In this document: one piece after another, positions 1,796 to 31,235 of the stretch
Layout of the letters: each line of letters opens with the position of its first letter
How positions within the stretch are numbered: the first letter of the stretch is position 1
Source: Promethearchaeota archaeon
Lineage (GTDB): Archaea; Asgardarchaeota; Lokiarchaeia; Sigyniarchaeales; SOKP01
Direction of reading: 5' to 3'
Assembly: GCA_011364975.1 (NCBI GenBank)
Contig: RDOE01000042.1
Coordinates: forward strand, 1 to 31,235
DNA: 31,235 bases
Program-made: the position numbers and the translations under genes
The notes under the pieces: model-generated
Databases searched by the model: none
Told to the model about the DNA's origin: nothing
What the model saw: only the letters and a program-made list of their open reading frames with translations

Positions 1796-4700
1796 ATGAG
1801 ATTAAATAAACTTAATCATAGAAGATTGTTTATTCTATTAGGACTGATCTGTGTATTTATTATTAATATTAATTATTCCAATAATAATTTTTTTGATGCC
1901 TTAAAAACAAAAGATAATTCTTCTAACACTCTCCTAGATTATAATAATTTGCCTTTAGAAACCCAAACATTAAGTCCTGAAAATGAATATTACGGGATAG
2001 GGCAAGAATGGAATGTAACTCACTGGGCAAATAGAACAGATAATAACTTAGAAGCTACCTTTCAAAGCACTTCTTATGATGTAGTAAATATTCCATTAGG
2101 TTATGGGTGGCAAGGATATAATTTAAGCGCTAGCATAAATGATCTATATGAAAAGCGAAATTGGGCAAATGGGACATTTAATTGCGGTCCTGATGATAAT
2201 ACTTCGCCTAATTCAGATTGGTCTGATAATGATAGCAGCTATTTACAGAATTGGACTTTTGGAAAAAATGATGTAGTTGGCTATACAAACCCTATGAGTG
2301 GAAATTATTATGATAGCGGAAATGCCTATACTAAATATCAAGATTGTTTAGAATTAAGAATTAGAGGAGGGCCAAGCGCAGATCCATACGGATATGATCA
2401 AGGCGATAATTGTTGGTGGTCTACTGATTTTCAAATACCTAGAGGTAAAGCTATTGAAGCAGAGTTAAATATTGCATTATATTCTTATAATAATGATGAA
2501 TGGGGTGATCAATTCAATTTTCAAGTGCTTCTTAATGATAAATTCATTTATGGTATGGGATTTTATAGCTTGGAATTATTAGCGGGAGCCCAAACTTGGT
2601 ATCCTCTAAAAATTCAATTAACCAACTGGTTAAATGATCCAAGTGTTTTTTCCGATCCTGTAAATGATACAGATATCAATCTAAAATTAAGGTTGTATAA
2701 AACAGGGGGAACTGATCATTGGAGTGAATACGAAACATATTATAGTCTATTTTTGGATAATGTATCATTAATTTTAAAATCTCAAGCACTTCCTACTCAA
2801 TTAGGATTAAAACTAAATTCTACAGCAGTACAAAATATTAATTGGGGATCAGGAACAATTGATTTAAATGGAAATTGGAATGGAAGCGAAAATTCTCTTG
2901 TTAATGCTAATTTTAGTTGTACTAATGAATGGGCTTTAGGCGATTATGATGTGTCTTTTAAAACAAACTTAAATCTTTTTACCACTAAATCTTACCCAGA
3001 AACTAATTATGAGACTAATACAATGTCAATAGGCACGTCTTTTGAGGCGATTAATAACAGTAATATTGTTAATTGGGAATGTTATGCATATTTTGGAGTA
3101 CCAACTGGATATCAAGAAACTTTGATGAAACTAGAATTTCCAGAAGATGTTAATATTACATGGATTTCTAATCCTCAACAACCTGATACTAATGTACTTA
3201 GTCAATGTAATAATTTAACTCATGGTTTGTTAATAGTACCCGTTAATTCGATTTTGAGTACTCCAGATGGTTTTTGGAAATTCAAGGGAATTTCTCCTAA
3301 TTATTGTACGGAATTAAAAATTTATAATAATAATACTGGTTCTTGGGTTGAAGATACTAATTTTTTTAGCGGAGGTTATGTTAATATTACTTCGAAAGTG
3401 GTTAATTCAGCATTGATTTCTAGTTATATTCAAAATACTAAAGCTAAAGTTCAAATTAGGTTCCCTAACGGATCGATTTGGTCAAAGCAGAGCCAAATTA
3501 AGAATCTAGATATTAATGGCAATGTTAAGTTTGACGTTTTTCAGATTCCTCTAACCCCTCCAGAATATATGGTAGGGGAATATGAAGTAATTGTAACCTG
3601 GAATAATTCCTATTCAATTAACTCTTTTAACGAAATCGGGATAATCTCCAAAAAGTTAACTGTTATTCACGAATCTGTGTTAATCCCAGATAAGTCTTAT
3701 TATGAAAAAGTATTTGAAGGAACTCTTCTAAATTTAAAAGTTACTTTTAAAGATATCAAGAATAATAAACCAATTGAAGATGCAGTAGTTTATCTTTACA
3801 ATTTTACAGGAGGAATCCAATACTTTAGCGAAATAAATCCAGGGTATTACTTTCTTGAATATAATAGTAGCGGGGGATTTTCTGGAAACAATATAATTAC
3901 AATTTACGGTAATTCTACCTATTATCAAAATTTTAAAGTAAATATAACAGTTGAATTAATCCTTGAAACAAACCTGAAAGTAGAGGAATTTCCAAGTTTA
4001 CAAGTAGTTTGGAAAAATAATTTTACAGTTCATCTTAATTATACTGAAAAAATTACTGGAAATGGTATTATAACCTCACCTCAACATAATTGGATTGGAG
4101 ATTATCACACTATTATGGTTAATCCAGGGGTATATTATATCTCATTCAATAGTTCCTTATATGAGGTGAATAAATTCCATTCGCTTATTATTAATCTAAA
4201 TGAAACAGGTTTTGAACAACAAACTATTATAGTAGAAATTCAAGTCCTAGAAAGAAGTACTTATCTTGATAAAATATATTTAAACGATTTCGAAAGAACA
4301 TCAATTGAAATTGCCTGGAATAAGATATTGAATATAACGACAAACTATAAGGATATTAATGGATTATTAATTAGCGGAGCAATTATTCAATTACGTGATG
4401 GAACAAAGATTTTAGGGACATTTTCAGAGCAAGCAAATAAGTATTATTCTCTTTTAATAAATACAACCTTATTTAATGTTGGAGTAAATTCATTGGCAAT
4501 TTATGCTAAGCAAACTAATTACACTGCCTCATTTACAAACCTCATTATAACTATTGGAGAACGATCAACATATTGTTTAATATTTCTGGATTCCGAACAA
4601 ACATCATCATGTGAAGTACCTTGGAATGATAATTTAAATATTACTGCTATTTATCGGGATCAAGAAACTAATAATTTCATTGGTGGGGCAACGCTACAAT

Positions 4701-7051
4701 TACGCTATGGTTCGGATATATTAGGTACATTATCTATACATACATCTTATGATCAATACTATTTACAGATAAATACTACGATTCTAAGTGTGGGAGTTAA
4801 TGGTTTAACAATTTATGCTAAACAAGATAATTATTCTATTTGTTTAGAAAACCTTATTATAACGGTAATAGAACGAGAAACTACTAGTTCAATTTACCTT
4901 GATAATCAGATTAGAGATTCTTATCAACTTGAATGGAGAAATATTATGAATATTACTACTATTTATAAAGATTTAGAGACAAGTGAATTTATAGATGGTG
5001 CTTTAGTTCAAATCCGTAAGGGTGCGATTACTTTAGGTGTTTTTTCTAAGGATTCTTTACAGAAGCAATATACTTATATTATTAATACTACTCTTTTAGG
5101 TGTCGGGGTTAATACATTAACAATTTATGCTAAGCAAGATAATTATTCAATCACTGTAAATAATATTATTATCACAGTAGCAGAAAGAACCACGCAACTC
5201 CAAGTTCTATTAGATGGAAGAGATCTGAATACAATAATTCGTTATAATATTTCAATGGGGGAAGCATTAAATATTACTGCAATTTATAAAGATGATTTAG
5301 ATCAATTTATCGATGGCGCTACGGTCAACTTAGTAGGTGGGACAATTTCTGAAATTTTTATACGAAATCTTGTGTATGAACAATATAACCTAATAATCTT
5401 AGCTGAAGATTTAGGAGTAGGTGTAACTTTCTTAACAATTTCAGCTAAACAAATTAATTATTCTATAGTTTTTAGTAATTTAATGATAAACGTAAAAGAA
5501 AGAAAATCAGATATCCAATTATTCCTGAATGAAGAGAATAAGACTCTCGAAAAATATATCAAAGCAGAAGTTAATACGTTAATAAACATAACTATAATTT
5601 TTAGAGATTACTTAAACGGCTCCTTTATTAGTGGTGCAACTGTTCAATTTGTTGGAACAATAGAAGGATTCTTAACTCAACATCCCGTTCATGAACAATA
5701 TAATGTCACAATAGATTCAAATAATTTAGGGCAAGGTGTAAATTTCCTAACCATTTTTGCACAAAAAGATGGTTATGAATCAAAATCAATTTTAATTACT
5801 ATTGAAATTATTGAATTAAAATCTATATTACACTTGTTTCTCAATGAAGCTAATAAAACATTAGATAAATCTATTAAAGTCACAATTGGTCAAATAATCA
5901 ATATTACAACAATTTACGAGGATTATTTAGGTAACTTTGTTGAAGGAGCTCTTGTTGCTATTGTTGGAGAGGGAATATCAGAGAATTTTACTAGACACTT
6001 AGTCTACAATCAATATAATCTATCTCTTGATTCCAGAAATCTGAATTTTGGAGTCAATTTTTTAACCATTTACGCCCAGAAGATAAATTATCAACCCCAA
6101 ACCACAATAATAAAAATAGAAATTGTTGATAAAGATACTAATATAAATCTATTTCTAAATCAGCTTAATAAAACATTAGATTCGACGATAGAGCTTCCTT
6201 ATGGGGCTATATTAAATATTACTATTAAATATTTTGAGGTAGAATCTAAAGAACATATATCAAATGCAATGATTCAATTAATTGGTGAAGGCCTTTCTGA
6301 GGTTTTAATTGAGTTTGGAACATTAAATCAATATTCAATAATTATAAATACTAATCAATTAGATATTGGAGTACGATTTTTAACGATATACGCTCAAAAA
6401 GCAAACTATCAATCATGCTCAAAACTTTTAAAAATTCAAGTAAATAGAATAAAAACTAATGTTTCAACATATTCAGGAATTTCTGTATTTAACAAGAAAC
6501 CGGGAGATTCTTTCGAATTAGAAGTTCTATTGATGGATCTTGATTTTAATCAACCAGTTTTAAATGCGTCGGTTACTTATACTTGGACGTTTGGTCAAGG
6601 ATCATTATTGGATCAAGATGATAATGGAATTTACACTGCTACTTTAACTAACTTAGTTGAAGGTATTCATGTAATAACAATCACGGTTTATGCAGGAGAT
6701 GATTATGAATTCGAGAGATATAGAATTACTTTAAATGTTATTCAACCTGCTGGAGAGGCGTTACTATTCCAAATTTTAACCGTTGTAGGAATTGCCGCTG
6801 CTGTTGGAATTGGAGGTTATTTAATTGCTTACCAGAAAGTATTAAAGTATCCAAAACAAATCAGAAAGATACGTAAAATTAAAAAGACATTAAAAAGTAA
6901 AAAGTTACCCAAAATTGAAATCCTACCACGGAAAAGTGAGATTAATGAGATATATTACTTAAATTATATTGCATCCAATAAGAATTTAAAAGATAAGATC
7001 ACAGAAAAGTCAGTAAAAGAAGCAGAAAAATTAAAAAAAAACAACAGTTGA
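1796..7051 (+). CDS. Large membrane-anchored cell-surface glycoprotein with tandem Ig-like repeats
   Basis: 1751 aa. Basic plus hydrophobic N-terminus (RRLFILLGLICVFIINI), many N-x-S/T sequons, about 10 ~100-aa beta-sandwich-like repeats, and a C-terminal TM helix (LLFQILTVVGIAAAVGIGGYLIAY) followed by a Lys/Arg-rich tail (KYPKQIRKIRKIKK). Confidence 0.9.
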   Translation: MRLNKLNHRRLFILLGLICVFIININYSNNNFFDALKTKDNSSNTLLDYNNLPLETQTLSPENEYYGIGQEWNVTHWANRTDNNLEATFQSTSYDVVNIPLGYGWQGYNLSASINDLYEKRNWANGTFNCGPDDNTSPNSDWSDNDSSYLQNWTFGKNDVVGYTNPMSGNYYDSGNAYTKYQDCLELRIRGGPSADPYGYDQGDNCWWSTDFQIPRGKAIEAELNIALYSYNNDEWGDQFNFQVLLNDKFIYGMGFYSLELLAGAQTWYPLKIQLTNWLNDPSVFSDPVNDTDINLKLRLYKTGGTDHWSEYETYYSLFLDNVSLILKSQALPTQLGLKLNSTAVQNINWGSGTIDLNGNWNGSENSLVNANFSCTNEWALGDYDVSFKTNLNLFTTKSYPETNYETNTMSIGTSFEAINNSNIVNWECYAYFGVPTGYQETLMKLEFPEDVNITWISNPQQPDTNVLSQCNNLTHGLLIVPVNSILSTPDGFWKFKGISPNYCTELKIYNNNTGSWVEDTNFFSGGYVNITSKVVNSALISSYIQNTKAKVQIRFPNGSIWSKQSQIKNLDINGNVKFDVFQIPLTPPEYMVGEYEVIVTWNNSYSINSFNEIGIISKKLTVIHESVLIPDKSYYEKVFEGTLLNLKVTFKDIKNNKPIEDAVVYLYNFTGGIQYFSEINPGYYFLEYNSSGGFSGNNIITIYGNSTYYQNFKVNITVELILETNLKVEEFPSLQVVWKNNFTVHLNYTEKITGNGIITSPQHNWIGDYHTIMVNPGVYYISFNSSLYEVNKFHSLIINLNETGFEQQTIIVEIQVLERSTYLDKIYLNDFERTSIEIAWNKILNITTNYKDINGLLISGAIIQLRDGTKILGTFSEQANKYYSLLINTTLFNVGVNSLAIYAKQTNYTASFTNLIITIGERSTYCLIFLDSEQTSSCEVPWNDNLNITAIYRDQETNNFIGGATLQLRYGSDILGTLSIHTSYDQYYLQINTTILSVGVNGLTIYAKQDNYSICLENLIITVIERETTSSIYLDNQIRDSYQLEWRNIMNITTIYKDLETSEFIDGALVQIRKGAITLGVFSKDSLQKQYTYIINTTLLGVGVNTLTIYAKQDNYSITVNNIIITVAERTTQLQVLLDGRDLNTIIRYNISMGEALNITAIYKDDLDQFIDGATVNLVGGTISEIFIRNLVYEQYNLIILAEDLGVGVTFLTISAKQINYSIVFSNLMINVKERKSDIQLFLNEENKTLEKYIKAEVNTLINITIIFRDYLNGSFISGATVQFVGTIEGFLTQHPVHEQYNVTIDSNNLGQGVNFLTIFAQKDGYESKSILITIEIIELKSILHLFLNEANKTLDKSIKVTIGQIINITTIYEDYLGNFVEGALVAIVGEGISENFTRHLVYNQYNLSLDSRNLNFGVNFLTIYAQKINYQPQTTIIKIEIVDKDTNINLFLNQLNKTLDSTIELPYGAILNITIKYFEVESKEHISNAMIQLIGEGLSEVLIEFGTLNQYSIIINTNQLDIGVRFLTIYAQKANYQSCSKLLKIQVNRIKTNVSTYSGISVFNKKPGDSFELEVLLMDLDFNQPVLNASVTYTWTFGQGSLLDQDDNGIYTATLTNLVEGIHVITITVYAGDDYEFERYRITLNVIQPAGEALLFQILTVVGIAAAVGIGGYLIAYQKVLKYPKQIRKIRKIKKTLKSKKLPKIEILPRKSEINEIYYLNYIASNKNLKDKITEKSVKEAEKLKKNNS
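4253..6448 (+). repeat. Seven tandem 103-106-aa Ig-like protein repeats (309-318 nt period) inside the surface protein
   Basis: Units start at 4253, 4562, 4874, 5186, 5501, 5816 and 6131. Consensus LNITxxYxD...FIxGAxVQL...QY...INTxxLxVGVNxLTIYAKQxNY. More diverged units flank the array. Confidence 0.9.
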
Positions 7052-7232: not shown

Positions 7233-7351
7233 CATAAATATATGTATAATTATATTTACTTTAGAATTTTACCTAACTAATTCAAAATTCTTGAAAAAAT
7301 GAGAACTAATATAATCAAATATCAAATCCAAAAATAATCCTGTTGGTTCAA

Positions 7352-7948
7352 ATGTACAATTTAAATAAAATACTCCAATCTGATCTTGAATTTATTAATA
7401 TAAGTAATGAAGATTTTACACTTTTTGAATACAAACCGCCTCGATCCTTTAAAAATTTTGCATTAGACTTAAATATTGTTAAACAAAACACTAAGAGCAA
7501 CATCTTTTTTCATCTTTTTAGAGGTAATTTAAAAATCGTTAATATTAGATTAGATGATCTAATATATACTGCTGGATCTACTAATAAAATTCAATATCAA
7601 TTATTAGAAGCGTTAATTGAACAAACTGCAAAAAATTTTAATATTACTTATGATGTAAAGTATATTCTTTCTTATGGAAATTTTGATAATTCAATTTTTA
7701 GAGATTATAAGGATGAAATTGTTAAATTAATTCAGACTTTCGATGAGTTAAAAGCTGTTAAAGTGATTAATGTTCCGTGTTCTGTCTGTGATAAAGTATT
7801 ACCATTAATCGTTAAAAAAAGTTTTATTGAAAATGCTGAATCTTACCCCGCTCCCCTCGTATATATGCATGAAGGCCATTCAATTTTATGTTTTATTGAT
7901 AAAAATTATGATGTTAGAGGAGTAGAATTAGTCAATATTACAGGATAA
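7352..7948 (+). CDS. Hypothetical protein: longin/profilin-like N-domain plus C-terminal CxxC...HxxH putative metal-binding domain
   Basis: The ORF track starts at TTG 7343; the first ATG is 7352. C-terminus: VPCSVCDKVLPL...YPAPLVYMHEGHSILCFIDKNYDVRGVELV. Confidence 0.75.
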   Translation: MYNLNKILQSDLEFINISNEDFTLFEYKPPRSFKNFALDLNIVKQNTKSNIFFHLFRGNLKIVNIRLDDLIYTAGSTNKIQYQLLEALIEQTAKNFNITYDVKYILSYGNFDNSIFRDYKDEIVKLIQTFDELKAVKVINVPCSVCDKVLPLIVKKSFIENAESYPAPLVYMHEGHSILCFIDKNYDVRGVELVNITG

Positions 7949-8020: not shown

Positions 8021-9022
8021 ATGGAAGAAAATAATAAATCTGAAAATCCTACTTTTTATGAAGAGATAATAAAGAAAACAAAAACAGGGATCACTTTCCC
8101 TAAGGATTTAAGGGATGCTTTATTTGGGGACGAGGAAGAAGTTTATTTCAAAATTATTGTTCCAAATGAGAAGGATAAAATTATACTAGAATTTATCAAT
8201 AAATCAGAAGCGAATAACTATACAAAAAAAGAAAAAGAAGTAAAAACTAAAACTAGCAAAGAATTGAAACCTAGGACATCTGCGAAGGCTAGTAAATCAG
8301 TTGAATTTAGCCCCAATTGGGGTGCTTATTTTCTTTATGATTTTAAAAACCAAGATAAAGTTCGACCAATTCTCGAATCAGCATTTTATAAGTTTTCAGA
8401 AACACCAATGAATTTAGAAGACGCAATGGGGCGGGTGAAATACGCATTAGTTTCATTTTTAACTTCAACCAAAACAGAGAATGCAAAATTATATTTTTCA
8501 GTAATTCGGTTTCTTTCTGATGTTATTGAAAAATTTAATCTTCCAAATTTAATAGATTGGATTTTTGAAAAAATAATTCCTAATGTTGAGAGTAAATTCC
8601 TTTATGAACAAGCTTTACTCGAATTATTAGAATTAAGCTTGAAAATTAATCGATATGAAAAAGCAGAGCTCTTTATTTTTTATATTCTAAAAAACATAGA
8701 TGACTATCCTCGATCAGAGTTATATAATATATTTAATTCATTCAAAGAATTAGTAAAAAAAGTGAGAAACATCGAAAGAACAGAAAAAATTGACGTGTTA
8801 TTAAAAGAAAAATTAATAGAATATGGTGAAGGTGTGTCAGATAGCGATTATAAGATACAAATTGTTGAATTTCTCGAAGATTTAAATTATATTGAGTTGG
8901 CTTATAAACTTGCTAAAGATATTCAAAATAGCCTTCCTGCTGACAGTGTGAAAGTTGAAGAAATTCGAAAAATAGTAAAAAGATTGTATACTACCCCAAT
9001 TACAGAAAATAAGATAGAATAA
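8021..9022 (+). CDS. Hypothetical protein with N-terminal AbrB/SpoVT-like DNA-binding motif and C-terminal all-helical repeat-like domain
   Basis: IKKTKTGITFPKDLRDALFGDEEEVYFKII...DKIILEF matches the AbrB pattern (G-x-I-T-I-P-K-x-x-R-x-x-L). A Lys-rich linker and amphipathic helices follow. Confidence 0.7.
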   Translation: MEENNKSENPTFYEEIIKKTKTGITFPKDLRDALFGDEEEVYFKIIVPNEKDKIILEFINKSEANNYTKKEKEVKTKTSKELKPRTSAKASKSVEFSPNWGAYFLYDFKNQDKVRPILESAFYKFSETPMNLEDAMGRVKYALVSFLTSTKTENAKLYFSVIRFLSDVIEKFNLPNLIDWIFEKIIPNVESKFLYEQALLELLELSLKINRYEKAELFIFYILKNIDDYPRSELYNIFNSFKELVKKVRNIERTEKIDVLLKEKLIEYGEGVSDSDYKIQIVEFLEDLNYIELAYKLAKDIQNSLPADSVKVEEIRKIVKRLYTTPITENKIE

Positions 9023-9061: not shown

Positions 9062-10297
9062 TTAGTTCGCTTCTTTATCATTTTCACCTTTTTTAGCTAA
9101 TCGATCTAGAGATTCATCAGCGTTTTGCAGTTCATCTTCTAAAATTTTTTGTTCTTTTTCTCTGATCTTTTTCTGTTTTAATTCAAGTTCGACTTGCGAA
9201 AGCTCTGTTTCTTTTTCTAATAATTCTTCTTTCATTTTTAATGTTTTTTCTTTTTCCTGAATAGCAATCTCTTCAATCTCTTGTTCTTTTAACTCTAACT
9301 CTAATTTTTTCTTTTTAATTTCAAGATCTTTCTTTTTTAATTCAATAGCTTTGTCAATAATTGCTTCTTCTTCTTTTTTCATTTTTTTTATTACTTTTTT
9401 AGGAATATCTTCTTGAGTTTGGGGAATTTTACTTTCTTGTTCTATCAAATTTTCTTTAATTTTGAGTGTTTTCTCTTTTTCTTTAATCATTTTTTCTTCT
9501 ATCGCTTTTTCTTTTTCTTCTATTTCTAATTTCTTTTTTTTGATTTCTAATTCCTTCCTCTTTAACTCTAATTCCTTATCAACAATTTCAGCTTCTTCTC
9601 GTTCTAATTTTTCTTCCTCTGTTAATGTTACTTTCTCCTCTTCTTCCACAATTTCTTCTATTTTTTCAACTGTTACAATTGCTTTCAATATACTATCAAC
9701 TGCATTCTTAAGATTCTCGTCTTCTGGATGCTCTTTGCTATAAGAAGTTATTATTTTTGTAACAAGAGACGGAGTATTGCGACCTATGGCTTTTAAAGCT
9801 TGAATAGCTTTTTCAATAACAAATTCTTGGGTATCACTTAGTAGTTTAGCAATATTTTTTATTAATGACTCATCATCAATTTTTTTATCTCCTCCAGCCA
9901 TAAAAATAAGTAATTGGAGATCAGCTTCTCTAACATTTGGATCATCAGAGCTTAATAAATCTTCACTATATGGTAAAAATAACTCGCATTCATTTTCACA
10001 TAAAGATTTAAGTAATAAAAGAAAAGAATATCTTAAAACTGAGTCACGTTTTGAAAGATTTTCTAATATGGAGGGGATATCGATAATTAATTGTTCAATT
10101 AGAAATCTAAGAACTGTTCTGCCACCATGTAATAATAACAGAGTTTCAATAACATCTTCTAATCTATCTAAATAATTAACCTCTGTTGAATCACCTAAAT
10201 ATAATGCAATAATATTAGCAGCATCGTCAAACCTTTTATCATTAACAAAATCTTTAATTTTTTTAATTTCAGGATTTTGGCTTTCTTTTTCACTCAT
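9062..10297 (-). CDS. HEAT-repeat protein with long charged coiled-coil tail
   Basis: HEAT-like units (LENLSKRDSVLRYSFLLLL; DLLSSDDPNVREADLQLL; KLLSDTQEFVIEKAIQALKAIG), then about 190 aa of E/K-rich coiled coil containing an internal duplication. GAGTGA SD-like site upstream. Confidence 0.85.
   Translation of the reverse strand: MSEKESQNPEIKKIKDFVNDKRFDDAANIIALYLGDSTEVNYLDRLEDVIETLLLLHGGRTVLRFLIEQLIIDIPSILENLSKRDSVLRYSFLLLLKSLCENECELFLPYSEDLLSSDDPNVREADLQLLIFMAGGDKKIDDESLIKNIAKLLSDTQEFVIEKAIQALKAIGRNTPSLVTKIITSYSKEHPEDENLKNAVDSILKAIVTVEKIEEIVEEEEKVTLTEEEKLEREEAEIVDKELELKRKELEIKKKKLEIEEKEKAIEEKMIKEKEKTLKIKENLIEQESKIPQTQEDIPKKVIKKMKKEEEAIIDKAIELKKKDLEIKKKKLELELKEQEIEEIAIQEKEKTLKMKEELLEKETELSQVELELKQKKIREKEQKILEDELQNADESLDRLAKKGENDKEAN
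9205..9615 (-). repeat. Internal duplication with 75-aa (225 nt) period in the coiled coil
   Basis: EEAEIVDKELELKRKELEIKKKKLEIEEKEKAIEEKMIKEKEKTLKIKENLIE versus EEEAIIDKAIELKKKDLEIKKKKLELELKEQEIEEIAIQEKEKTLKMKEELLE. The equivalent Asp codons are at 9578-9580 and 9353-9355. Confidence 0.85.
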
Positions 10298-10339: not shown

Positions 10340-11299
10340 TTAAACCCAAAGAATATAAAAATCTTCATATAGACGATAAAGAATGTTAAAGATTAGTCTT
10401 AAATCCCTATATCTTAACATACCTTTCATTTTTTTGTCTAAATAATAATCCGATTCAATTCCAATTCTGATTTTGATTTTAAGATTATCTAATTTATCAT
10501 AATAAATATTAATTTCCTTTGCAAATTGACAGAGAGCGTCTATATCATTAGGAAAGACATTCCAGAGATAATTATCTTTTTTAGAACTATTCTCATCAGG
10601 TGGGACCTTACTGATTTTAAATAAAGTTTCTTTGGGAATCATTGTAGTAAGTTCTATACAATCATTTGGGATCATCTTTAAAGAAATTTCAGGAAAGTAA
10701 ATTTTCGCGAACAATTTAGTTAAAGCATGCAATAATTCTAACTCCTTAATACTTTCACGAGTGGCATTGCATAATACATAGTTTTCTTCGATAAAAATGA
10801 CGTGAAGTTTATCATCATATTTAATAATCATAAATTTTTTTTGTTCTGAAAGTAAATAATCAAAATTTTCCTCTCTATTATTAATGCGATCGTTAAAAAC
10901 TTTATTAATCTCTTTGAAATCTTGTTTTGTGAAATATTTATTGAGTTTTCTGTAATCTCCGTGAAAAAAAACGTCAAGAAAATCAATTAAGTAAAGATAA
11001 GAATCATTTGGTTTGTAAACTACGGTTTTATTCCTAAAATCTCTTAAAACTATATTTTTATGTACACTATAACAAAAACCTGGTTGATCTTCTACTTTTA
11101 GCCCATTTAATAATCTTAATTTTAAAAGAAACCTTCTAGAGCATAATGGTGTTAAGGTACATTGAATTCGGTCGATCTGGCATTCTTCAAAACAGAGTTT
11201 ATTAATTCTTAGATTTAATAAATCTAAGAGTTCTGATTTGAACTTCGAATCAGTCTCCGTATCTAAAAAACTTGAAATATGCTCCGGTAATAATGGCAT
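10340..11299 (-). CDS. Hypothetical protein with N-terminal cysteine cluster
   Basis: 319-aa ORF with CFEECQIDRIQCTLTPLC (C-x3-C-x6-C-x5-C) plus PGFCYSVH. It ends 42 nt before the start of the HEAT/coiled-coil gene, suggesting an operon. Confidence 0.8.
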   Translation of the reverse strand: MPLLPEHISSFLDTETDSKFKSELLDLLNLRINKLCFEECQIDRIQCTLTPLCSRRFLLKLRLLNGLKVEDQPGFCYSVHKNIVLRDFRNKTVVYKPNDSYLYLIDFLDVFFHGDYRKLNKYFTKQDFKEINKVFNDRINNREENFDYLLSEQKKFMIIKYDDKLHVIFIEENYVLCNATRESIKELELLHALTKLFAKIYFPEISLKMIPNDCIELTTMIPKETLFKISKVPPDENSSKKDNYLWNVFPNDIDALCQFAKEINIYYDKLDNLKIKIRIGIESDYYLDKKMKGMLRYRDLRLIFNILYRLYEDFYILWV

Positions 11300-12169: not shown

Positions 12170-13684
12170 ATGATAAGACAAGTTCACGTTTTCTATAAAG
12201 GAGATAGGATTTATAATTATTCATATGCTATTGGTTTATCAGATGAGGATTTAAATAATGTAAAAAAAATTATTCAATCATTCTTAGATATGCCTATTTC
12301 TGGGAAAATTTTTCAGCGTCCTGTTTCAGAAAACTTTCAAATTTTCCATAAATCTGAACAAAGTATTTTATTTTTAATTATTGCTGATTTAACCGACCAG
12401 ATTGAGTACGTTAAGAATATTATTAATAAAATTATAGTTAAGTTTAATAAACTTTTTCCTGATCCTAGTAGCATTCACCTTGAGAGTGATAAAAAGTCAG
12501 AATTTGATCTTTATCTTAGAGAGATTCAATATGATTTACATTCAAAAATTACAATTTTAGGACCTTTTAATTCTGGTAAAACAACCCTATATAACCTTTT
12601 AAGGAGTAATAATGAGAAATTAATTATGAATTTCGCAAAATCATCTCTTTTTAAAATTGAAAATTTAAAATTTGATTTATGGGACTTTCAATTAGATGAT
12701 AATTTTTCACTATTATGGTCTAAATTTGTAAGTGGTTCTGATTTAATTATTCTTCTATTTGACTTATCAAATTATCATTTGAAAGTTATAGACCACTTTT
12801 TAAATTTGATCAAGCGGGAAAGCAAATTTTCAAAAGTTATTATTTTAGGAAATAAAAGAGATTTAGTGGAAGAAATTGATATAAAATTAGTCAGGAATGA
12901 ATTAAATTTACCCCATTTTGAAGAGATATCACTAATAAATGATAATGTAAAGGACCAAATCCTATTTTTAATCTCAAAAACCTTAGCATTGAGAAAATAT
13001 TTACCTCAAAACTTTAAACATTTAATGAAGGATGCAATAGATACTGAAAATGAAGGAAAATTAGTTTTAGCTATTGCAAAATATAAAGAGTTAATTAAAA
13101 TTTGCAATGAGTATCAAGATTTTACATATTTAGACACATTTAAACAAAAAGTTGATGAACTACAAAAAATGGTTGAAAAGCAATCAGAACGAAGAAGAGC
13201 TGAAGAAAGCAAGAAAAAGTTTGAAATACCTGGTAAAATTATATTTACAAAAAAAGTTTTAGTAAAACCCCTTCCTACTTCAGAATCTGAAATTACACAA
13301 TCGTCTATTGAAATACCTCAGGTCCCTAAAAAGTTTGAGAGTGAGATTACCAATAAAAAAACTGCTGAGGATCTAACTTTATTTAATAAAGAGGAAAAGA
13401 TTCAACAATTAAGAAAAGATTCATGGCAACCACAGGAAATAAAAACGGAATTTAAAGTGATTGCCCCTATTGAAACCTCAATTTCATATAAAGAAATGCC
13501 AGATTTGTTAAACTACCCTAAAACTCTTCAAAATTTAATTGAACAAAAAGGTAGTTCCCTTAGTTTGAAATTATGTGAACAACTAGTTAGAGAATTGCAA
13601 AATACTCTAGCACGAGTCCTAACCATGGAAGATATACAAATGGCTGCAGAAGTTTTTGTAAAACAAGAATCTTCCACAATCTAA
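12170..13684 (+). CDS. Longin-domain / small GTPase (Arf/Rab-like) fusion protein with helical C-terminal region
   Basis: N-terminal longin pattern (MIRQVHVFYKGDRIYNYSY...ILFLIIADLTD...IINKIIVKFNKLF). G1 GPFNSGKTT, G3-like LWDFQL, G4 NKRD, G5-like EISL. Then a three-helix MIT/TPR-like segment, a low-complexity linker and a small C-terminal helical domain. Confidence 0.85.
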   Translation: MIRQVHVFYKGDRIYNYSYAIGLSDEDLNNVKKIIQSFLDMPISGKIFQRPVSENFQIFHKSEQSILFLIIADLTDQIEYVKNIINKIIVKFNKLFPDPSSIHLESDKKSEFDLYLREIQYDLHSKITILGPFNSGKTTLYNLLRSNNEKLIMNFAKSSLFKIENLKFDLWDFQLDDNFSLLWSKFVSGSDLIILLFDLSNYHLKVIDHFLNLIKRESKFSKVIILGNKRDLVEEIDIKLVRNELNLPHFEEISLINDNVKDQILFLISKTLALRKYLPQNFKHLMKDAIDTENEGKLVLAIAKYKELIKICNEYQDFTYLDTFKQKVDELQKMVEKQSERRRAEESKKKFEIPGKIIFTKKVLVKPLPTSESEITQSSIEIPQVPKKFESEITNKKTAEDLTLFNKEEKIQQLRKDSWQPQEIKTEFKVIAPIETSISYKEMPDLLNYPKTLQNLIEQKGSSLSLKLCEQLVRELQNTLARVLTMEDIQMAAEVFVKQESSTI

Positions 13685-15208: not shown

Positions 15209-16714
15209 ATGGTTTTTAGAATGAATGCTGTTAAAGAACTAAGTGAATATTTCAGTGAAATTATGCATTTAAATTATATCCAAGCCTTACTCGGTTGGGA
15301 TCAACAAGTAAACATGATGGGATATAAATCTGTTACGGGAAGAGGAGAACAAATTGCACTTATTCACCAACTGCTCCATAAGAGATTAACATCTGAAAAG
15401 TTAGGGAAATTAATTATCGAAGCAGAAAAAGTAAAAAATCTTAATGATATAGAATCTGCAATAATTAGAGAATCTAAAAGAGCTTATGAACAAGAAATAA
15501 AGTTACCTGAGGAATTGGTAATTGAAATAGCAAAAACAACCACATCGGCCCAACAAGTATGGCAAGAAGCAAGAAAAAAAAATGATTTCAAAATGTTCCA
15601 ACCTTTACTGGAAAAAAATATTGAATTACAAATTGAAAAAGCTAAAAAACTGGAAACTCATCCTGATTTATATTCTACATTGATTGATTTATTTGAACCT
15701 AGTGCAACTTATGATTGGATTAATAGTGTTTTTAAACCTATAAAATCAAAACTTAAAGATTTAGTAAAGAAATTAGATTCTTCTCCAAATAAGCCAGAAG
15801 ACTCAATTTTAAAAAAACATTATGATCCTAACAAACAATTTGAACTAAGTCATAAAATAATTGAAAAATTACAGTTCGATTTTGATCGTGGACGTCAAGA
15901 TCGATCAACTCATCCATTTACAACTTCATTAGCTGCCTTAGACACTAGAATCACAACAAGAACAACAGAGCCTTTTCCTGATTGCATAACAAGTACTATT
16001 CATGAATGTGGTCACGCACTCTATGAAATGGGAATAAAAGAAGAATTACATAATACTATTTTATGTCAAGGTACATCTATGGCAATACATGAATCCCAAT
16101 CTAGGATGTGGGAAAATTTTATAGGAAGAAGTAAAGAATTTTGGACTTATTGGTACCCTACGTTCCAGCGATATTTCCCTGAAAATTTAGAAAACTATCC
16201 ACTAGAAGAATTTCATAGAGCTATTAATATAGTTGAACCTTCATTCATTAGAGTGAATGCAGATGAGGTGACTTATGGATTACATATTATCTTACGATTC
16301 GAATTAGAAAAAAGCCTTATTGACAGAAAAATACAAGTGAATGAATTACCAGAATTATGGAATTCTAAATTTGAAGAATTATTGGGAATTATCCCTCCTG
16401 ATGATATTAAAGGTGTTTTACAAGATGTTCATTGGTCATCGGGATATTTTGGATATTTTCCTACATATTTTCTAGGAAATCTTTATGCGGGACAAATTTA
16501 TTCATATGCCTTAAAGCTCAATCCAAACTTTCCCCAAGATTATGAAAAAGGCGAATTTTCTGGCTTGCTATCATACTTAAAAGAAAATATTCATCAATAT
16601 GGAAGCATTTATCGTGCTAACGATTTAATAAAAAGGGTTACTGGTGAAGCCTTAAATCCAGAATATTTTCTAAAATATATTGAACAAAAATATTATCCTA
16701 TCTATAAAATATAA
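15209..16714 (+). CDS. Carboxypeptidase M32 (Taq/Pfu-type metallocarboxypeptidase), copy 1
   Basis: HPF, DTRITTR, HECGHALYE (HEXXH), HESQSR, FIRVNADEVTYGLH, QDVHW and GYFPTY. The alternative start ATG 15221 (MNAVKEL) aligns with the start of copy 2. Confidence 0.95.
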   Translation: MVFRMNAVKELSEYFSEIMHLNYIQALLGWDQQVNMMGYKSVTGRGEQIALIHQLLHKRLTSEKLGKLIIEAEKVKNLNDIESAIIRESKRAYEQEIKLPEELVIEIAKTTTSAQQVWQEARKKNDFKMFQPLLEKNIELQIEKAKKLETHPDLYSTLIDLFEPSATYDWINSVFKPIKSKLKDLVKKLDSSPNKPEDSILKKHYDPNKQFELSHKIIEKLQFDFDRGRQDRSTHPFTTSLAALDTRITTRTTEPFPDCITSTIHECGHALYEMGIKEELHNTILCQGTSMAIHESQSRMWENFIGRSKEFWTYWYPTFQRYFPENLENYPLEEFHRAINIVEPSFIRVNADEVTYGLHIILRFELEKSLIDRKIQVNELPELWNSKFEELLGIIPPDDIKGVLQDVHWSSGYFGYFPTYFLGNLYAGQIYSYALKLNPNFPQDYEKGEFSGLLSYLKENIHQYGSIYRANDLIKRVTGEALNPEYFLKYIEQKYYPIYKI

Positions 16715-16860: not shown

Positions 16861-18351
16861 ATGTCTGCGATAAAGGAACTTTGGAGTTATTTTAATGAAA
16901 TTAAGAAATTAAAATATATTGAAGAACTATTACAATGGGATTTAAATGTTAATATGCCTAAAGGTTCTATCGAAGGAAGGGCTGAACAGCGTGAATTAAT
17001 ACGGGGTTTAATTCACAGAAAAATGAAATCTCAAAAAGTTGGAGAGCTGATAAAGGATGCTGAAAATTCAAATCCTCTTACTCAAACTGATTTAGCACTA
17101 ATTAGAGAAGCCAAAAGAGAACATGACCACGCTAAGAAAATACCAGAAGACTTAATAAGTGAAATTGCTAAAACTGGAGCATTAGGATATATTGAATGGG
17201 AGAAAGCAAGAATTAAGTCTGAATTCTCTAGATTTGAACCTTATCTTGAGAAAATGGTTTCACTACGCACCAAATTTGCTGAGTTTTTAAATACCGGTCC
17301 TACTCCTTATTCAAGCTTAATAGATTTGTTTGAACCTGGAGCAACTTATGAGTGGATTGCAGGAATTTTCAATAAAATGAAAATTAAACTAGTTAAAATT
17401 ATACATAAATTAGTTGATTGCTCTGAAGGTCCAGACCAATCAATATTAAGAAAATACTATGAGACTGAAAAGCAATGGCAATTAAGTCTTGAAATTATTA
17501 AGAAATTGAATTTTAATTTTAATATTGGTCGTCAAGATAAGTCAACTCATCCCTTTACTGCTTCAGTATCTTCAATAGATACTCGAATAACAACTAGAAT
17601 ATGGGAAGACTTTCTTCCCGCTTGCCTCTTTGGAACTATTCATGAATGCGGCCATGCTCTTTATGAAATGGGATTTAATGCCCAATTAAGAGGGACTTAC
17701 CTAGCTGATGGATGTTCTATGGGTATGCATGAATCACAATCACGATTATGGGAAAATATTGTTGGGCGTAGTAGAGAATTTTGGGTATATTGGTATCCTA
17801 TATTACAGAAATTCTTTCCAGAAAATTTGAGAGCTTGTTCATTAGAAGATTTTTACCGTTCGATAAATGTAGTTAAACCTTCATTTATACGAGTAGAAGC
17901 GGATGAAGTTACTTATGGATTACATATTATATTACGCTTTGAATTAGAAAAAATGATGATTGAGGATAATCTTCAAGTAAGTGAATTACCTCAAATATGG
18001 AATACTAAATTTGAAGAATTATTCGGAATTGTACCTCCAAGCGATAAAGAAGGAGTTCTACAAGATCCTCATTGGATTGGAGGATATGGATACTTCCCTA
18101 CTTATGCACTAGGCAATCTTTATGGGGCACAAATTTATCATAGCACATTAAAAGATCTTCCTAATCTGCCTTATGAATATGAAAAAGGAGAATTTTCAAA
18201 TTTATTAAAATATTTGACAGAAAATATTTATCAATATGGCAAAATTTATAGAGCTCCCGAATTACTCGAGAAAATGACGGGAGAAGTGTTAAATCCAGAC
18301 TACTTTATAAAATATGTAGAAAATAAATTTTATCCGATTTATGGCTTATAA
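16861..18351 (+). CDS. Carboxypeptidase M32, copy 2
   Basis: HPF, DTRITTR, HECGHALYE, HESQSR, FIRVEADEVTYGLH, QDPHW and GYFPTY. Confidence 0.95.
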   Translation: MSAIKELWSYFNEIKKLKYIEELLQWDLNVNMPKGSIEGRAEQRELIRGLIHRKMKSQKVGELIKDAENSNPLTQTDLALIREAKREHDHAKKIPEDLISEIAKTGALGYIEWEKARIKSEFSRFEPYLEKMVSLRTKFAEFLNTGPTPYSSLIDLFEPGATYEWIAGIFNKMKIKLVKIIHKLVDCSEGPDQSILRKYYETEKQWQLSLEIIKKLNFNFNIGRQDKSTHPFTASVSSIDTRITTRIWEDFLPACLFGTIHECGHALYEMGFNAQLRGTYLADGCSMGMHESQSRLWENIVGRSREFWVYWYPILQKFFPENLRACSLEDFYRSINVVKPSFIRVEADEVTYGLHIILRFELEKMMIEDNLQVSELPQIWNTKFEELFGIVPPSDKEGVLQDPHWIGGYGYFPTYALGNLYGAQIYHSTLKDLPNLPYEYEKGEFSNLLKYLTENIYQYGKIYRAPELLEKMTGEVLNPDYFIKYVENKFYPIYGL

Positions 18352-18972: not shown

Positions 18973-19088
18973 TTTGAGATTGTTATCGTTATTTTTATTG
19001 AAATAACTTGGATTCTTCTTTTCCTTACCTAAGTAATATAACTATATTTATATACTTCTCTTGTTATAATTTAATAAAATATTTCTTA

Positions 19089-20117
19089 ATGCATATAGAT
19101 TTGAACATGATTGTTTCTGAAATCAATATTAAACTAACAATTCTTGGCTACTGGGGTGTCGGAAAAACTTCAATTGTAAACAGTTTTATTGGTAAGAATT
19201 TTCCAGATATGTATATTCCAACAATAGGTTCTAACATACTTAGAAAAGAATACAAATTAGGAGACAATCATATAAGACTTAACATTTGGGATATAGGAGG
19301 TCAAAGATCTTTTAATCCACTGAATCCTGTTTTTTTTAGCAATTTGGATGCCGCATTTTTAGTTTTTGATTTATCGAATCCAAAAGAAACATTTTCAGAA
19401 CTTTATAATACTTACCTAAAAAATCTTGCACAAAATTCTCCAGATTGTTTAATATATGTTATAGGAAGTAAATCAGATTTAATAAAACCTGAAGATTCAG
19501 AAATTCTCTTGAATAATATTCGAAAGCAAGAGATAAAAGATTTTCCCGTAATTTTTGTATCTGCAAAACATCAAGATAATATCTCAGGAGCATTTTCTCT
19601 TATGATATATGACTTCTTAACAAAATTGTTGAAAGAAGAAAACAATAGAGCTCTTGATGGGATAAAAATAGCATTTTTAAAGTCAATTGGAAAAACTGAG
19701 CGTGAATTGAAAGATTTGGTCATAAATTTAGAAGATATCGATTCAAGTACACTTCACAGTAAAATAACACCTACAATCATCAAAAAAGTAGTAAAATCTA
19801 ATGATACAGATTTATTAGGTTTAAGGGAATTCAAAGAAATTAAAGAGTTAAAATCGAGTTATCCAAATATTGAAATCTTAAAAAAAAATATTATGGATGC
19901 TTATGAGAATAATATCATTATCATTACAGATTTAATAAACAATTTAAAAAAAACGCCAATAAATTCACTTATTAAAAATATTGATAAGTCTATTGAAGAT
20001 TTAATGAATTTAAAGAAAGACTTCGATTTAAAATTAAAATCAATGTTAGAGTTAGAGTTAAATGAAGCTAGTTCACAAGAATTTAAAAATTTAACCAAGG
20101 AAAAGAGAAATGCCTAA
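19089..20117 (+). CDS. Rab-like small GTPase with long C-terminal helical/coiled-coil extension
   Basis: G1 GYWGVGKTS, G2 YIPTIG, G3 IWDIGGQ, G4 variant SKSD, G5 SAK. The real start is more likely ATG 19089 or 19107 than the track's TTG 19008, because a TTTATATA box sits at 19047-19054. Confidence 0.88.
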   Translation: MHIDLNMIVSEINIKLTILGYWGVGKTSIVNSFIGKNFPDMYIPTIGSNILRKEYKLGDNHIRLNIWDIGGQRSFNPLNPVFFSNLDAAFLVFDLSNPKETFSELYNTYLKNLAQNSPDCLIYVIGSKSDLIKPEDSEILLNNIRKQEIKDFPVIFVSAKHQDNISGAFSLMIYDFLTKLLKEENNRALDGIKIAFLKSIGKTERELKDLVINLEDIDSSTLHSKITPTIIKKVVKSNDTDLLGLREFKEIKELKSSYPNIEILKKNIMDAYENNIIIITDLINNLKKTPINSLIKNIDKSIEDLMNLKKDFDLKLKSMLELELNEASSQEFKNLTKEKRNA

Positions 20118-27305: not shown

Positions 27306-29477
27306 ATGACAACGATTATTGTCAGTGAAAAAAATAAGGCAGCAAAAGCAATAGCTGAAGCGCTTGGTGCTATAAAAACAATAAGTATTTCAAAAAGGAT
27401 AGACATATATTATGTCTCTGCCAAAGATGTTTATGTAATCCCCCTCAGAGGTCATATCTGTGAATATAAAAATTCATCTTTATTTAAAAGCTGGACTAAA
27501 ACAAATCCTCGTGATATTATAACAAATCCTAAGGCTATTGAAAAGGTACCGATTAATTATGCTGCTCCTTATATCAAGATATTAAAGGATTATTCTAAAA
27601 AGGCTGATTTATGTATTATTGGAACAGATGCTGATATAGAAGGATGTAATATAGGATTATACGATGCCTTGCCTTATATTATGCAGGTTAATGCAAAGAT
27701 TGTAGTAAGTCAATTATGGCTAAGTTCATTACAGAAAAGTGAAATCCAACAAAAATTCAACAATCTCATCCCCCCCAAGTTTAGCTGGGGAGCATCTGGA
27801 GAAGCTAGAGCAATTATAGACGCAGTTATTGGCTTTTCTGCAACAAGAGAACTCACGAATACTCTAAGACCGCTACTAAATAAATTTAAAATTAGATTTA
27901 CTTCCATAGGCAGGGTTCAAACTTGTTTATTATATTTAATATATCTTAGAGAAAAAGAGATAGCCAAGTTTATTCCTGAACCTTATTTTAACATTGATGC
28001 AAATTTAATTCACCAAACAGGATTTTTTAATGCTCATCATGAAAAAAATCCATTTAAGAAAGAGTTTGAAGCAATAGCAAAAATAATTTTTGATAAAATT
28101 AAAAATGAGAAAATAGCGAAAGTAGTTGATAATTCAAGTAAAATTATTCAGCGAGGACCGCCATCTCCATTAAACACTTCAAAAGCTTTGGTTTTATTAA
28201 CTAAACATTTGAAAATCACAGCTAATATGGCATTGAATACTATGAATGCATTATATCTTAACCAAATAATATCTTATCCAAGAACGGATAGTGATGTTTA
28301 TAAGCCAGATTTTAACCATCGCCCTATACTAGAACAAATTAGTTCACATTCTAACTATGGACCTTATACTCAAAATTTGTTAAAAAAAAAGCGAATCTTC
28401 CCCACCAAAGGTTATAAGGATGCGGGGGATCACCCTCCAATCACACCACTTGAGAGTTTGGAACCTTCAAATCCTAAATTTGAAAATAAGTTACAAGTAA
28501 AAGTATATGATCTTCTCACAAGACATTATTTAGCACTATTTGGAGAAAATGCAACAGAATCGAAACAAATTTTAAAACTCTTGATAAAAGATGAACCTTT
28601 TAAATCAGAAATTGTAGCACTTATCACCGAGGGATTTTTAGAAATCGCACCCTTTTTGAAACCACATTATGATAAAATGATACAAATTATTGCTACTGAT
28701 ATTCCTATCGAAAAGATAACTTTAGAAAAGAAATTCACACAACCTCCTCCAAGATATACGGATTCTTCGTTATTAAAACTAATGGAAAAAAATAATCTTG
28801 GCACAAAATCAACAAGACCTCTTATAATTAAGATTTTACAAACACGAGAAGTGATAAAAAGAATTAAAAGACAATATTTAATTACTGAATTAGGAAATTT
28901 TATTATTGAAAATTTAACTAAGGTTTGGTTACCTTTTTTAAAACCAGATTTTACTAGAAAAGTTGAGGAAAAACTTGAGGAGATTAAAGATGAAAAACGA
29001 AATATGGCAGATGTCGTAAAAGAGGTGAAAAAAGATTTTTTAGATTTATTTGATAAGTTTTTATCTCATAAGAAAAATCTGCTTAGGGAAATCAATAATT
29101 ATGATCCGATTAAAATACCAAATACAGCTATTAAGTTGTCGCAACCTAGTGTTACTAGTTCATATTGTCCCGTGTGTAAATCTGATAAAATGAAGTTTAT
29201 TAATTTAAAAAATAAGCGTTTTCTTGTTTGTAATAATGATACCTGTAAAAAATTTCTTTCATTACCTAAAAAAGGAAGATTAAATTTGTTAGATAGTACA
29301 TGTTCTATATGCGGTTTTAATGTGTTTGAAATATCCCTCCGTAGAAATAACAAATATTATAAATATTACCTTTGTCCGAAATGTTGGAATGAGAGTTTTA
29401 ATTCAAACAATGGAAAAGGATTTTGCTCAAATTGTGAAGAATATTGTATTATTGACGGTAAATGTGTAAAAAAGTAA
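27306..29477 (+). CDS. topA: Type IA DNA topoisomerase (archaeal TopA/Topo III-like) with C-terminal zinc ribbons
   Basis: TOPRIM SEK...DADIEG, SIGRVQT, catalytic Tyr in ISYPRTDS, DHPPITP, LGTKSTR. C-terminal CPVC, CNNDTC, CSIC, CPKC and CSNC. Confidence 0.93.
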   Translation: MTTIIVSEKNKAAKAIAEALGAIKTISISKRIDIYYVSAKDVYVIPLRGHICEYKNSSLFKSWTKTNPRDIITNPKAIEKVPINYAAPYIKILKDYSKKADLCIIGTDADIEGCNIGLYDALPYIMQVNAKIVVSQLWLSSLQKSEIQQKFNNLIPPKFSWGASGEARAIIDAVIGFSATRELTNTLRPLLNKFKIRFTSIGRVQTCLLYLIYLREKEIAKFIPEPYFNIDANLIHQTGFFNAHHEKNPFKKEFEAIAKIIFDKIKNEKIAKVVDNSSKIIQRGPPSPLNTSKALVLLTKHLKITANMALNTMNALYLNQIISYPRTDSDVYKPDFNHRPILEQISSHSNYGPYTQNLLKKKRIFPTKGYKDAGDHPPITPLESLEPSNPKFENKLQVKVYDLLTRHYLALFGENATESKQILKLLIKDEPFKSEIVALITEGFLEIAPFLKPHYDKMIQIIATDIPIEKITLEKKFTQPPPRYTDSSLLKLMEKNNLGTKSTRPLIIKILQTREVIKRIKRQYLITELGNFIIENLTKVWLPFLKPDFTRKVEEKLEEIKDEKRNMADVVKEVKKDFLDLFDKFLSHKKNLLREINNYDPIKIPNTAIKLSQPSVTSSYCPVCKSDKMKFINLKNKRFLVCNNDTCKKFLSLPKKGRLNLLDSTCSICGFNVFEISLRRNNKYYKYYLCPKCWNESFNSNNGKGFCSNCEEYCIIDGKCVKK

Positions 29478-29574
29478 ACTTATTCCTAAAATTAAATAAA
29501 AAAGTAAATAATGATATGCTTATCTAATGATAAAATCAGCATTTATCTTGTCGTAATATCTAAAAAGACCTAAA

Positions 29575-29940
29575 TTATTCCATTTGAAATCGATATTTAT
29601 TATAAGCTGCTCTAGTTAATCCAACATAATTATCTGATATTTTATAAAACATTTTTCCATTTATTACTTTACGCTCAACGTAATCATTCTTTAAGGTATG
29701 ATTTAACGAGTTAACCATAGTTCCTAAGGTTACTGCGCCCATATATTTTTGTTTTTTCTTGGCTATTCTAATTAAATCTAATTCTGAATGCCATGTTCCA
29801 TCCAATAACCCTATTAGGATATCATTTTTAACAGGTGTCTTAATATCTTTTATTTTATTAAACAGTTGAGAATAATCTGGTCTATAATATTTCTTTAAAA
29901 GATTAGTCTGTTCATATTTATTATTAAAGGATTCTTCCAT
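29575..29940 (-). CDS. Small winged-helix-like protein
   Basis: 121 aa. PVKNDILIGLLDGTWHSELDLIR...VTLGTMVNSLN...YVERKVINGKMFYKIS follows a helix-helix-helix-wing pattern. Confidence 0.75.
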   Translation of the reverse strand: MEESFNNKYEQTNLLKKYYRPDYSQLFNKIKDIKTPVKNDILIGLLDGTWHSELDLIRIAKKKQKYMGAVTLGTMVNSLNHTLKNDYVERKVINGKMFYKISDNYVGLTRAAYNKYRFQME

Positions 29941-30071
29941 GTTCCAATTTCACTTATATTAGATTATTTTACTATGTTATAATATCAGTATGATATTTTT
30001 AATGAAATGTGTTATGCTAGTAATATGGTCTAATCAGTTTATTGGTAATTTCTAAGTTTTTTAATCATGAT

Positions 30072-31187
30072 TCAAATTAAATCCTCAGGAATACCTTCCT
30101 TATAGTATTGAGCTCTTGTTATCCAATGATCTTGAAATTCAGGTAACATCGATAAGATAGAACCTCCCACCCATACTGAGAAAACTCGCTCACGTGGAGC
30201 AATAACTTTAATCGATTGATTTTTTTTCTTCCTTCTTGCTAATTCTAGTTCTAATTCCTTTATAATTCTTGATTTCAAATTGGGGAACATAGATGACCCA
30301 CCTGATAAGAAGATATTATTTAATAATTCTGGTCTTACATCTACATCACACAGTTCTATCACGTCCATTATTGCTTTTGGCAGTGAATCTTCTTCCAATT
30401 CCCTTGAAGGATCAAATAATAATTCGGGGACTTCAAATCTTTCTCTACTTAGGGAAATAGTAGAACCATCTGGAAGGGAATAAGGCTTTTCATATTGTTC
30501 TACTCTTTTTAAATCCTCCTTATAATCAAGTGAGACGAAGCATGCTTTTTCCTTTAATGCTCTGACTAATTCTCTTCTAATAGAGGAATCTGCAGAATAC
30601 CCTTGCTCCCCCAAAATTTTCTCCATATAACGTGTTAATGTTCTCCCCCCAATATCAAGGATCTTAATAGCATGACTTAATTTGTATCCCTCATAAATGG
30701 GTACAATTCTAGTAATACTATCTCCAATCTCAATTACCAACCCTGTTTGAAATCCCCCGGAATATAATGTTAACATAGAGTCTAATACTGGATAGAAAGC
30801 CATACATTGATAATGTTCTAAAAAAAGCTCAAAAACTCTTTTTAAGTCACCATGCGGAAATAATGGATGAACAGCAAATAACACATTAACTAGACTTGGA
30901 TCAACTCTTAGATTATAAAAAATATAATCTATAATTTTTTCAAATGAAAGCCAATCTTGGATAATACCTTTTTCTATAGGATATATAATCTTATATAACC
31001 CTAAAGATTGCACCTCATCTCCAACATACTATTCATCTTTCTTAATACCAGAATATTCATAATCGATTTGTCTGTATTTAGGTTTGCCTACCATAGTGAA
31101 AAACACTTGAGAAGGAAAATCTTCTCCAGCATATCCACATTTGCTCGAGAATTGTCCAATGTCTAGAACAACAGTGATATTCGCCAT
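30072..31187 (-). CDS. Actin-family protein (divergent Asgard actin-related paralog) containing one in-frame TAG at codon 53; recoded gene, recent pseudogene or sequence error
   Basis: ATG at 31187 gives MANITVVLDIGQFSSKCGYAGEDFPSQVFFTMVGKPKY...KKDE*YVGDEVQSLG, in frame with the track's ORF at 31013. Downstream actin motifs: YPIEKGII, EIGDSITRIVPIYEG, GGRTLT, KEKACFV, YSLPDG, ERFEVPELLF, LSGGSSMFP and SVWVGGSIL. 372 codons including the final stop. Confidence 0.92.
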
Positions 31188-31235
31188 AATTTAATATTAA
31201 AATTATTTTTATAGCTTTTTAAATTATTTATAAAT

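Follow-up and report, generated by a model that had tools for sequence, protein, structure and literature searches.

The window analysed here, a stretch of 31,235 nt that makes up one entire contig, belongs to an assembly of 3.74 Mb in 200 contigs (30.6% G+C, 99.25% completeness, 6.09% contamination). Near one of its ends an actin-family gene is encoded on the minus strand (30072..31187). The frame runs from ATG 31187 to a TGA stop at 30074-30072, spans 371 codons and, on translation, shows a single internal stop, a TAG at codon 53 (31029..31031, minus strand). The context is AAA GAT GAA TAG TAT GTT GGA GAT GAG (KDE*YVGDE), or DE-X-YVGDEVQSLGLYK when X is written for TAG, and the plus-strand C at 31029 is the G of the TAG. 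Upstream of the start codon the contig continues for 48 A+T-rich bases (31188..31235, minus strand) before it ends, and the distance from this end to the TAG is 205 bases.

The first-pass annotation had described this locus as a full-length actin-family frame with one in-frame amber codon and no frameshift. Sequence and translation bear this out, a second stop being absent as well. With X for TAG, the Pfam Actin model (PF00022) matched without a break over the stop (296 bits against a cut-off of 27, E 4.7e-88), residues 5-365 aligning to profile positions 6-401 of 410, which places the gene in the Actin family. The same annotation had pointed out that the mechanical ORF list begins only at a GTG further in, and the list and the translation agree: restart at this codon (31013..31015, minus strand; ORF 30072..31013) would give a product without residues 1-58, among them those of the phosphate-1 loop. 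Solved actin structures were aligned to the gene (134 chains at E ≤ 1e-30, with E values of about 1e-80), and the first residue past the TAG falls on residue 53 of 375-residue actins; the site is thus directly before YVGDE, as had been proposed. A length of 371 aa, earlier called normal, is the usual one at this locus, as 20 of 20 genus orthologues measure 370-371 aa.

On the downstream side, a 121-aa neighbour without a Pfam match (29575..29940, minus strand) accompanies the orthologue at all 20 loci of the genus, and a type IA DNA topoisomerase gene (27306..29477, plus strand; Topoisom_bac at 302 bits plus Toprim) in 19 of 20. Because both neighbours are conserved at the orthologue loci, positional orthology (synteny) was confirmed. 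Elsewhere in the window, a 1,751-aa ORF (1796-7051, plus strand) and the adjoining ORFs 162-1415, 7343-7948, 8021-9022, 9062-10297 and 10340-11299 matched no Pfam family at E ≤ 1e-5. Genes for Arf/Ras/Roc-type small GTPases with long extensions (12170-13684 and 19008-20117, plus strand) and tandem genes for M32 (Taq-type) carboxypeptidases (15209-16714 and 16861-18351, plus strand) are typical Asgard content.

Three actin-family loci were found in the genome, and relatives show 3-7 matches. Full-length, stop-free orthologues of the window gene (370-371 aa, 81-85% identity) are present in 20 of 24 congeners, and nine genomes from other genera of the same order carry an orthologue at 47-59% identity. 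Another paralogue in the relatives, of about 381-390 aa, is the canonical Lokiactin; its scores against the query are uniform across families, at about 310-320 bits. Against the solved Asgard 'HC1 actin' chain (9wc4) a congener Lokiactin scored 636 bits, and about 530 bits against eukaryotic actins, whereas the window gene, compared over its 318 C-terminal residues only, reached 276 and about 262 bits, respectively. The two proteins are of the same family and of similar length, and the YVGDE and phosphate-loop regions are recognisable in the window gene. Because its identity to the congener Lokiactin is 43% and its structure-match scores are far lower, the gene is classed from sequence as a divergent ARP-like paralogue and not as canonical Lokiactin, with similarity scores as the basis of its placement among ARP clades.

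This assignment agrees with what is described for Lokiarchaeia, where one Lokiactin is accompanied by less-expressed ARP-type homologues, the lower expression of the latter being taken from the one cultured case (available part of PMC9834061). The window gene resembles Asgard ARPs, such as the three ARP-type homologues that 'Ca. Lokiarchaeum ossiferum' has (same part of that source), in its full actin fold by Pfam, in its divergence from canonical actin and in being one of several actin loci, syntenic across the genus; it differs in that the internal TAG occurs in the window copy alone. A tblastn search of this 99%-complete assembly with the Lokiactin of a congener (locus L080:137-1279) recovered no canonical Lokiactin, the best match being the window paralogue itself, and the missing gene is probably an assembly gap. 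Canonical Lokiactin was present in nearly all relatives searched.

Apart from the stop, the copy is well preserved. At 229 columns that are invariant among the 20 orthologues of the genus, the window copy has six private changes, all conservative (L/I/V, Q to K), and orthologues of comparably deep branching have six and five at the same columns. As private changes are no more numerous than in comparable orthologues, there is no sign of decay, and the stop is either very young or not real.

Codon 53 was compared across orthologues. In the genus (n = 20) it encodes Tyr in nine (TAT 7, TAC 2) and Phe in 11 (TTT 10, TTC 1), the Tyr codons differing from TAG by a single base, and in more distant orthologues (n = 9) Tyr in two, Ile in four and Leu in three. 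Further named loci (n = 32) carry TTT 11, TAT 9, TTA 3, TTG 3, TTC 2, ATC 2, CTA 1 and CTC 1; 13 of these duplicate the first set, leaving 48 distinct orthologues, none of which has TAG at codon 53. TAG does serve as the true stop of this same gene in four of 29 orthologues.

Public sequencing runs containing most of the stretch numbered 20, from seven studies, none recorded as RNA; they were consulted as Logan contigs. Four runs from four studies (X1, X2, X4 and X9) were compared over 29500-31235. All six contigs that cover 31029, from three runs and three studies, read A at this position, which corresponds to TAT (Tyr), with the limit that Logan contigs omit rare variants, so that a minor C allele could be hidden. 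Each of the three runs contributed two contigs, and the depth reading A was 48.3 of 48.3 in X1, 13.3 of 13.3 in X2 and 13.2 of 13.2 in X9. Several of the contigs are near-identical to the window: record 11 of X2 differs at three of 1,258 bases, record 22 of X9 at six of 1,635 bases, and record 7 of X1 at one of 175 bases, namely 31029 itself. Run X4 has no contig over 31029; it shows a gap at 30882-31029, and a contig of depth 3.5 starts exactly at 31030, which hints at a branch or a read split at that base. An exact search of metagenome_contigs with the 30 bases just downstream of the TAG gave no match. The TAG occurs in this assembly alone, TAT is the codon of the population, and the stop is not conserved at its site in either the orthologues or the covering contigs.

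The reading that we favour, with a probability of roughly 0.55, is that the TAG is a consensus or base-call error and codon 53 is really TAT; the cause is one that we infer rather than a direct observation. It is favoured because the site is near a contig end, because thin support is hinted at in X4 and because three other private stops occur in the assembly. The organism's codon 53 would then be TAT (Tyr), its third base miscalled as G (plus-strand C at 31029) where the sequence is weakly supported, 205 bases short of the contig end. The ARP-like actin paralogue of this Lokiarchaeia-type (Promethearchaeota) archaeon would be intact and under selection, and its normal translation would yield 371 residues.

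A close second in probability is a real and very recent nonsense allele, TAT having changed to TAG either in a minor variant that happened to be assembled or as fresh pseudogenisation of a dispensable paralogue. From such an allele one would expect a peptide of 52 residues or, at best, the fragment from GTG 31013 without the phosphate-1 loop. The X4 contig beginning at 31030, with none over 31029, would be what a branch in a k-mer graph is expected to leave, and the absence of other decay fits a very young mutation. Several actin paralogues exist and those other than Lokiactin are less expressed (available part of PMC9834061), so that a loss might be tolerated. Against this, TAT in six of six covering contigs from three other studies means that such an allele is unfixed in the species, and 20 of 24 congeners keep the gene intact and in synteny. 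Four conserved genes would also have to be broken together, including a DNA polymerase at an invariant Tyr, a pattern that fits noise better than a viable genotype.

These four genes carry the private point nonsense codons detected in conserved genes over the whole assembly, at least four in number (two TAG, one TAA and one TGA). The second TAG interrupts a family-B DNA polymerase gene at residue 747 (C54:52037-55003, minus strand, frame 55003..52037; L118:1-2967) in the context CAA TAG TCA, shortly before the YGDTDS motif. Its column is Tyr in all 23 orthologous loci, drawn from 22 genomes (TAC 12, TAT 11), and the stop is private to this assembly. With about 4.6 kb between it and its contig end, it shows that private stops are not confined to contig ends. 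The TAA, likewise private, is found in a cytidylyltransferase-like gene (within C54:33001-33639, minus strand; L221:1-639), where 17 of 17 orthologues have Asp, Asn, Glu or Lys (GAT, GAC, AAT, GAG, GAA or AAA). The private TGA is found in an isomerase-like gene (within C1:6941-7843, minus strand; L197:223-1125), at a site with a sense codon in 18 of 18 orthologues (GGA 8, GGC 6, GGG 1, GGT 1, GCA 1, AGT 1), 16 of them Gly; this gene has no Pfam match, and the case was found by eye and by orthologue continuity.

Under uniform single-base change and the codon usage of the genome, the expected shares of new stops are 0.50 for TAA, 0.28 for TGA and 0.22 for TAG, and two or more TAG among four events have P = 0.21. 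Each of the two point TAGs takes the place of a Tyr codon whose third base has become G. Changes to TAG start from Tyr codons in 39% of cases, giving P = 0.15 for two of two; the Tyr origin is a mild coincidence, which systematic error or biology could explain. No TAG-specific signal is significant. Single-base codon changes yield a stop in 5.6% of cases and, by inference, the four detected stops would imply private substitutions numbering several dozen over the genes surveyed. The window stop resembles sporadic substitution errors or rare alleles in MAGs: it is one of several private changes of a single base that create stops of all three types in conserved genes, population and congeners having sense codons, and no feature departs from that ordinary picture. 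With private nonsense codons of this kind scattered over the assembly, single in-frame stops in it should be given no biological reading without reads.

In-frame stops were surveyed genome-wide. Mechanically called ORFs of at least 200 aa (n = 2,274) end with TAA in 1,686 cases, TAG in 298 and TGA in 290. Same-frame ORF pairs split by one stop number 39 for TAG, 208 for TAA and 80 for TGA, or 131, 123 and 276 for every 1,000 stops of the respective kind in long ORFs. Each of the 39 TAG pairs was scanned against Pfam with X at the stop, and a domain extends across the TAG in three: the actin gene, the family-B DNA polymerase and a BcrAD/BadFG-type ATPase on contig C126. As a control over all three stops, pairs were retained if the shorter piece had at least 50 aa and the longer at least 120 aa and if they were unshadowed by a longer ORF in another frame. 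This shadow-ORF filter replaced a coding-potential filter based on codon usage, which gave no discrimination, antisense junk ORFs also scoring positive. The control left 20 TAG, 125 TAA and 25 TGA pairs, for which 70 residues on either side of the stop were searched with Pfam. A domain spans the stop in three of 20 TAG pairs (two point changes and one insertion), one of 125 TAA pairs and two of 25 TGA pairs, counts that are limited to genes with a Pfam family and leave aside two weak, ambiguous membrane-protein matches among the TAA pairs. The three TAG cases were also recovered with the 70-residue flanks. An excess of internal TAGs, put forward earlier as a mark of recoding, is not seen as a TAG-specific one once the TAA and TGA controls are included.

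The machinery for amber decoding was searched for with the NCBIfam models of PylS (C-terminal), PylB, PylC and PylD, each of which was passed by the Methanosarcina acetivorans control alone. The best match to the PylS model TIGR02367 reached 31.7 bits against a cut-off of 178 and fell in a 533-aa class II synthetase-like frame. Among the models for the biosynthesis genes pylB, pylC and pylD, the best scores were 22.8 bits (cut-off 150), 25.4 bits (cut-off 348) and 45 bits (cut-off 248). Run without introns, ARAGORN reported a 'tRNA-Pyl(cta)' at C21:6638-6714, a fold whose acceptor stem has two mismatches and whose D arm has a single pair. Run with introns, it gave a well-formed tRNA-Lys(CUU) at 6609-6714, with the CTA inside a 31-nt intron. 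The Rfam tRNA model matched 6609-6713 of the same contig (L047:310-414) over the full length at 54.4 bits, CUCUU being followed by a 33-nt insert. The exons are contiguous in eight or more congeners, where they form an intron-less tRNA-Lys(CTT), and among 30 homologous loci the 'Pyl' call occurs at one, that of this genome itself. The tRNA-Pyl(CTA) was therefore rejected as an artefact of an intron-bearing tRNA-Lys(CUU), on the intron-aware fold and the intron-less congener genes. A CUA anticodon in place was found in none of 22 intron-aware ARAGORN calls and, at positions 34-36, in none of 25 Rfam tRNA hits, a census that is incomplete, tRNA-Tyr also being missing from it. Pyrrolysine decoding was thus rejected, with no pylS, pylB, pylC or pylD above its cut-off and the tRNA-Pyl call an artefact.

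Prokka relies on ARAGORN. The intron-bearing tRNA-Lys(CUU) artefact may bear on published "remnant tRNAPyl" calls: 'tRNApyl' sequences of Lokiarchaeia obtained with Prokka are presented as possible remnants in the available part of PMC9723677. A "tRNA-Pyl" called by ARAGORN or Prokka in Lokiarchaeia can be such a tRNA-Lys(CUU), and a check with an intron-aware model is needed. In the part of the source that was available (Sun et al. 2021; PMC9723677), Lokiarchaeia are without a pyl cluster and pyl amber decoding is reported in Sifarchaeia. The earlier remark on amber decoding as Pyl in some Asgard lineages accordingly holds for Sifarchaeia and does not extend to Lokiarchaeia. With the pylTSBCD decoding described there the window gene shares an in-frame TAG within an otherwise intact archaeal gene; it differs in that its genome is without pyl genes or tRNA-Pyl, its TAG is unconserved and the gene is no methylamine methyltransferase.

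Recoding, one of three options in the first-pass annotation, is refuted by the tests named there beforehand: public contigs carry the sense codon TAT, 48 of 48 orthologues have a sense codon, and neither pyl genes nor a credible CUA tRNA were found. The ranking of a nonsense mutation or a base-call error above recoding holds. Partial readthrough of UAG confined to this strain, by Pyl, a Tyr-inserting CUA suppressor or near-cognate tRNA-Tyr, with full-length actin still made, is very improbable, as pylS, pylB, pylC and pylD are missing from a 99.25%-complete genome whose sole CTA call sits inside a tRNA-Lys(CUU) intron, none of the 25 tRNA-model hits has CUA, TAG ends many long ORFs and four of 29 orthologues of this very gene, TAG-split pairs are no commoner than TAA-split ones, the TAG is unconserved in orthologues and near-identical contigs, and TAG readthrough leaves the private TAA and TGA unexplained. 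On its side are the two point TAGs, both in conserved domains at Tyr positions of otherwise intact genes, and the tRNA census (22 ARAGORN calls, 25 Rfam hits, no tRNA-Tyr), which could miss a suppressor. With a leaky UAG that inserts Tyr, changes from TAT or TAC to TAG at Tyr positions would be nearly silent and both point TAGs would be explained; we give this only a slender chance. The 129 nt from the TAG also fold somewhat better than shuffles (MFE -26.3 kcal/mol, z -2.3, four of 200 shuffles as good), a value for a single sequence, the orthologues having no stop at the site. A PYLIS-like structure downstream of the TAG is weakly supported by this fold. Were readthrough true, the gene would encode the first recoded cytoskeletal protein and hint that the archaea nearest to eukaryotes have a new variant of the code. 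The literature searches brought up no account of an amber codon in an Asgard actin.

The third domain-spanning TAG pair, in the BcrAD/BadFG-type ATPase gene (C126:18193-19014, minus strand; L126:1-822), was rejected as a recoded codon, its TAG lying within a 30-nt, hairpin-containing insertion that 20 orthologues lack. The insertion site is within the conserved MNDKCAAGTG motif. Two other congeners (L175 and L195) have inserts of 33 and 35 nt, stops included, at the identical site. The sequences of the hairpin stems differ and all pair, and the inserts have in common a 3' tail, AGTCAAA, which is complementary to exon sequence about 18 nt upstream. From its sequence the insert resembles an intron, perhaps one of an archaeal mRNA, or else a very small mobile insert; the insert folds yielded no canonical bulge-helix-bulge. 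A genome-wide family of hairpin plus AGTCAAA was not found: a perfect hairpin of at least 6 bp stands just upstream at 19 of 577 AGTCAAA sites, which by a hand estimate is about the chance level in A+T-rich DNA.

Both TGA pairs spanned by a domain in the control are HdrA-type (L274 and L277), with the TGA in FPTDDC(A/S)I-X-(I/L), which is consistent with selenocysteine use. Separately, a tRNA-like match at C106:34349-34413 (minus strand) combines a long extra arm with the anticodon loop CUUCAAA (anticodon UCA), as fits a tRNA-Sec.
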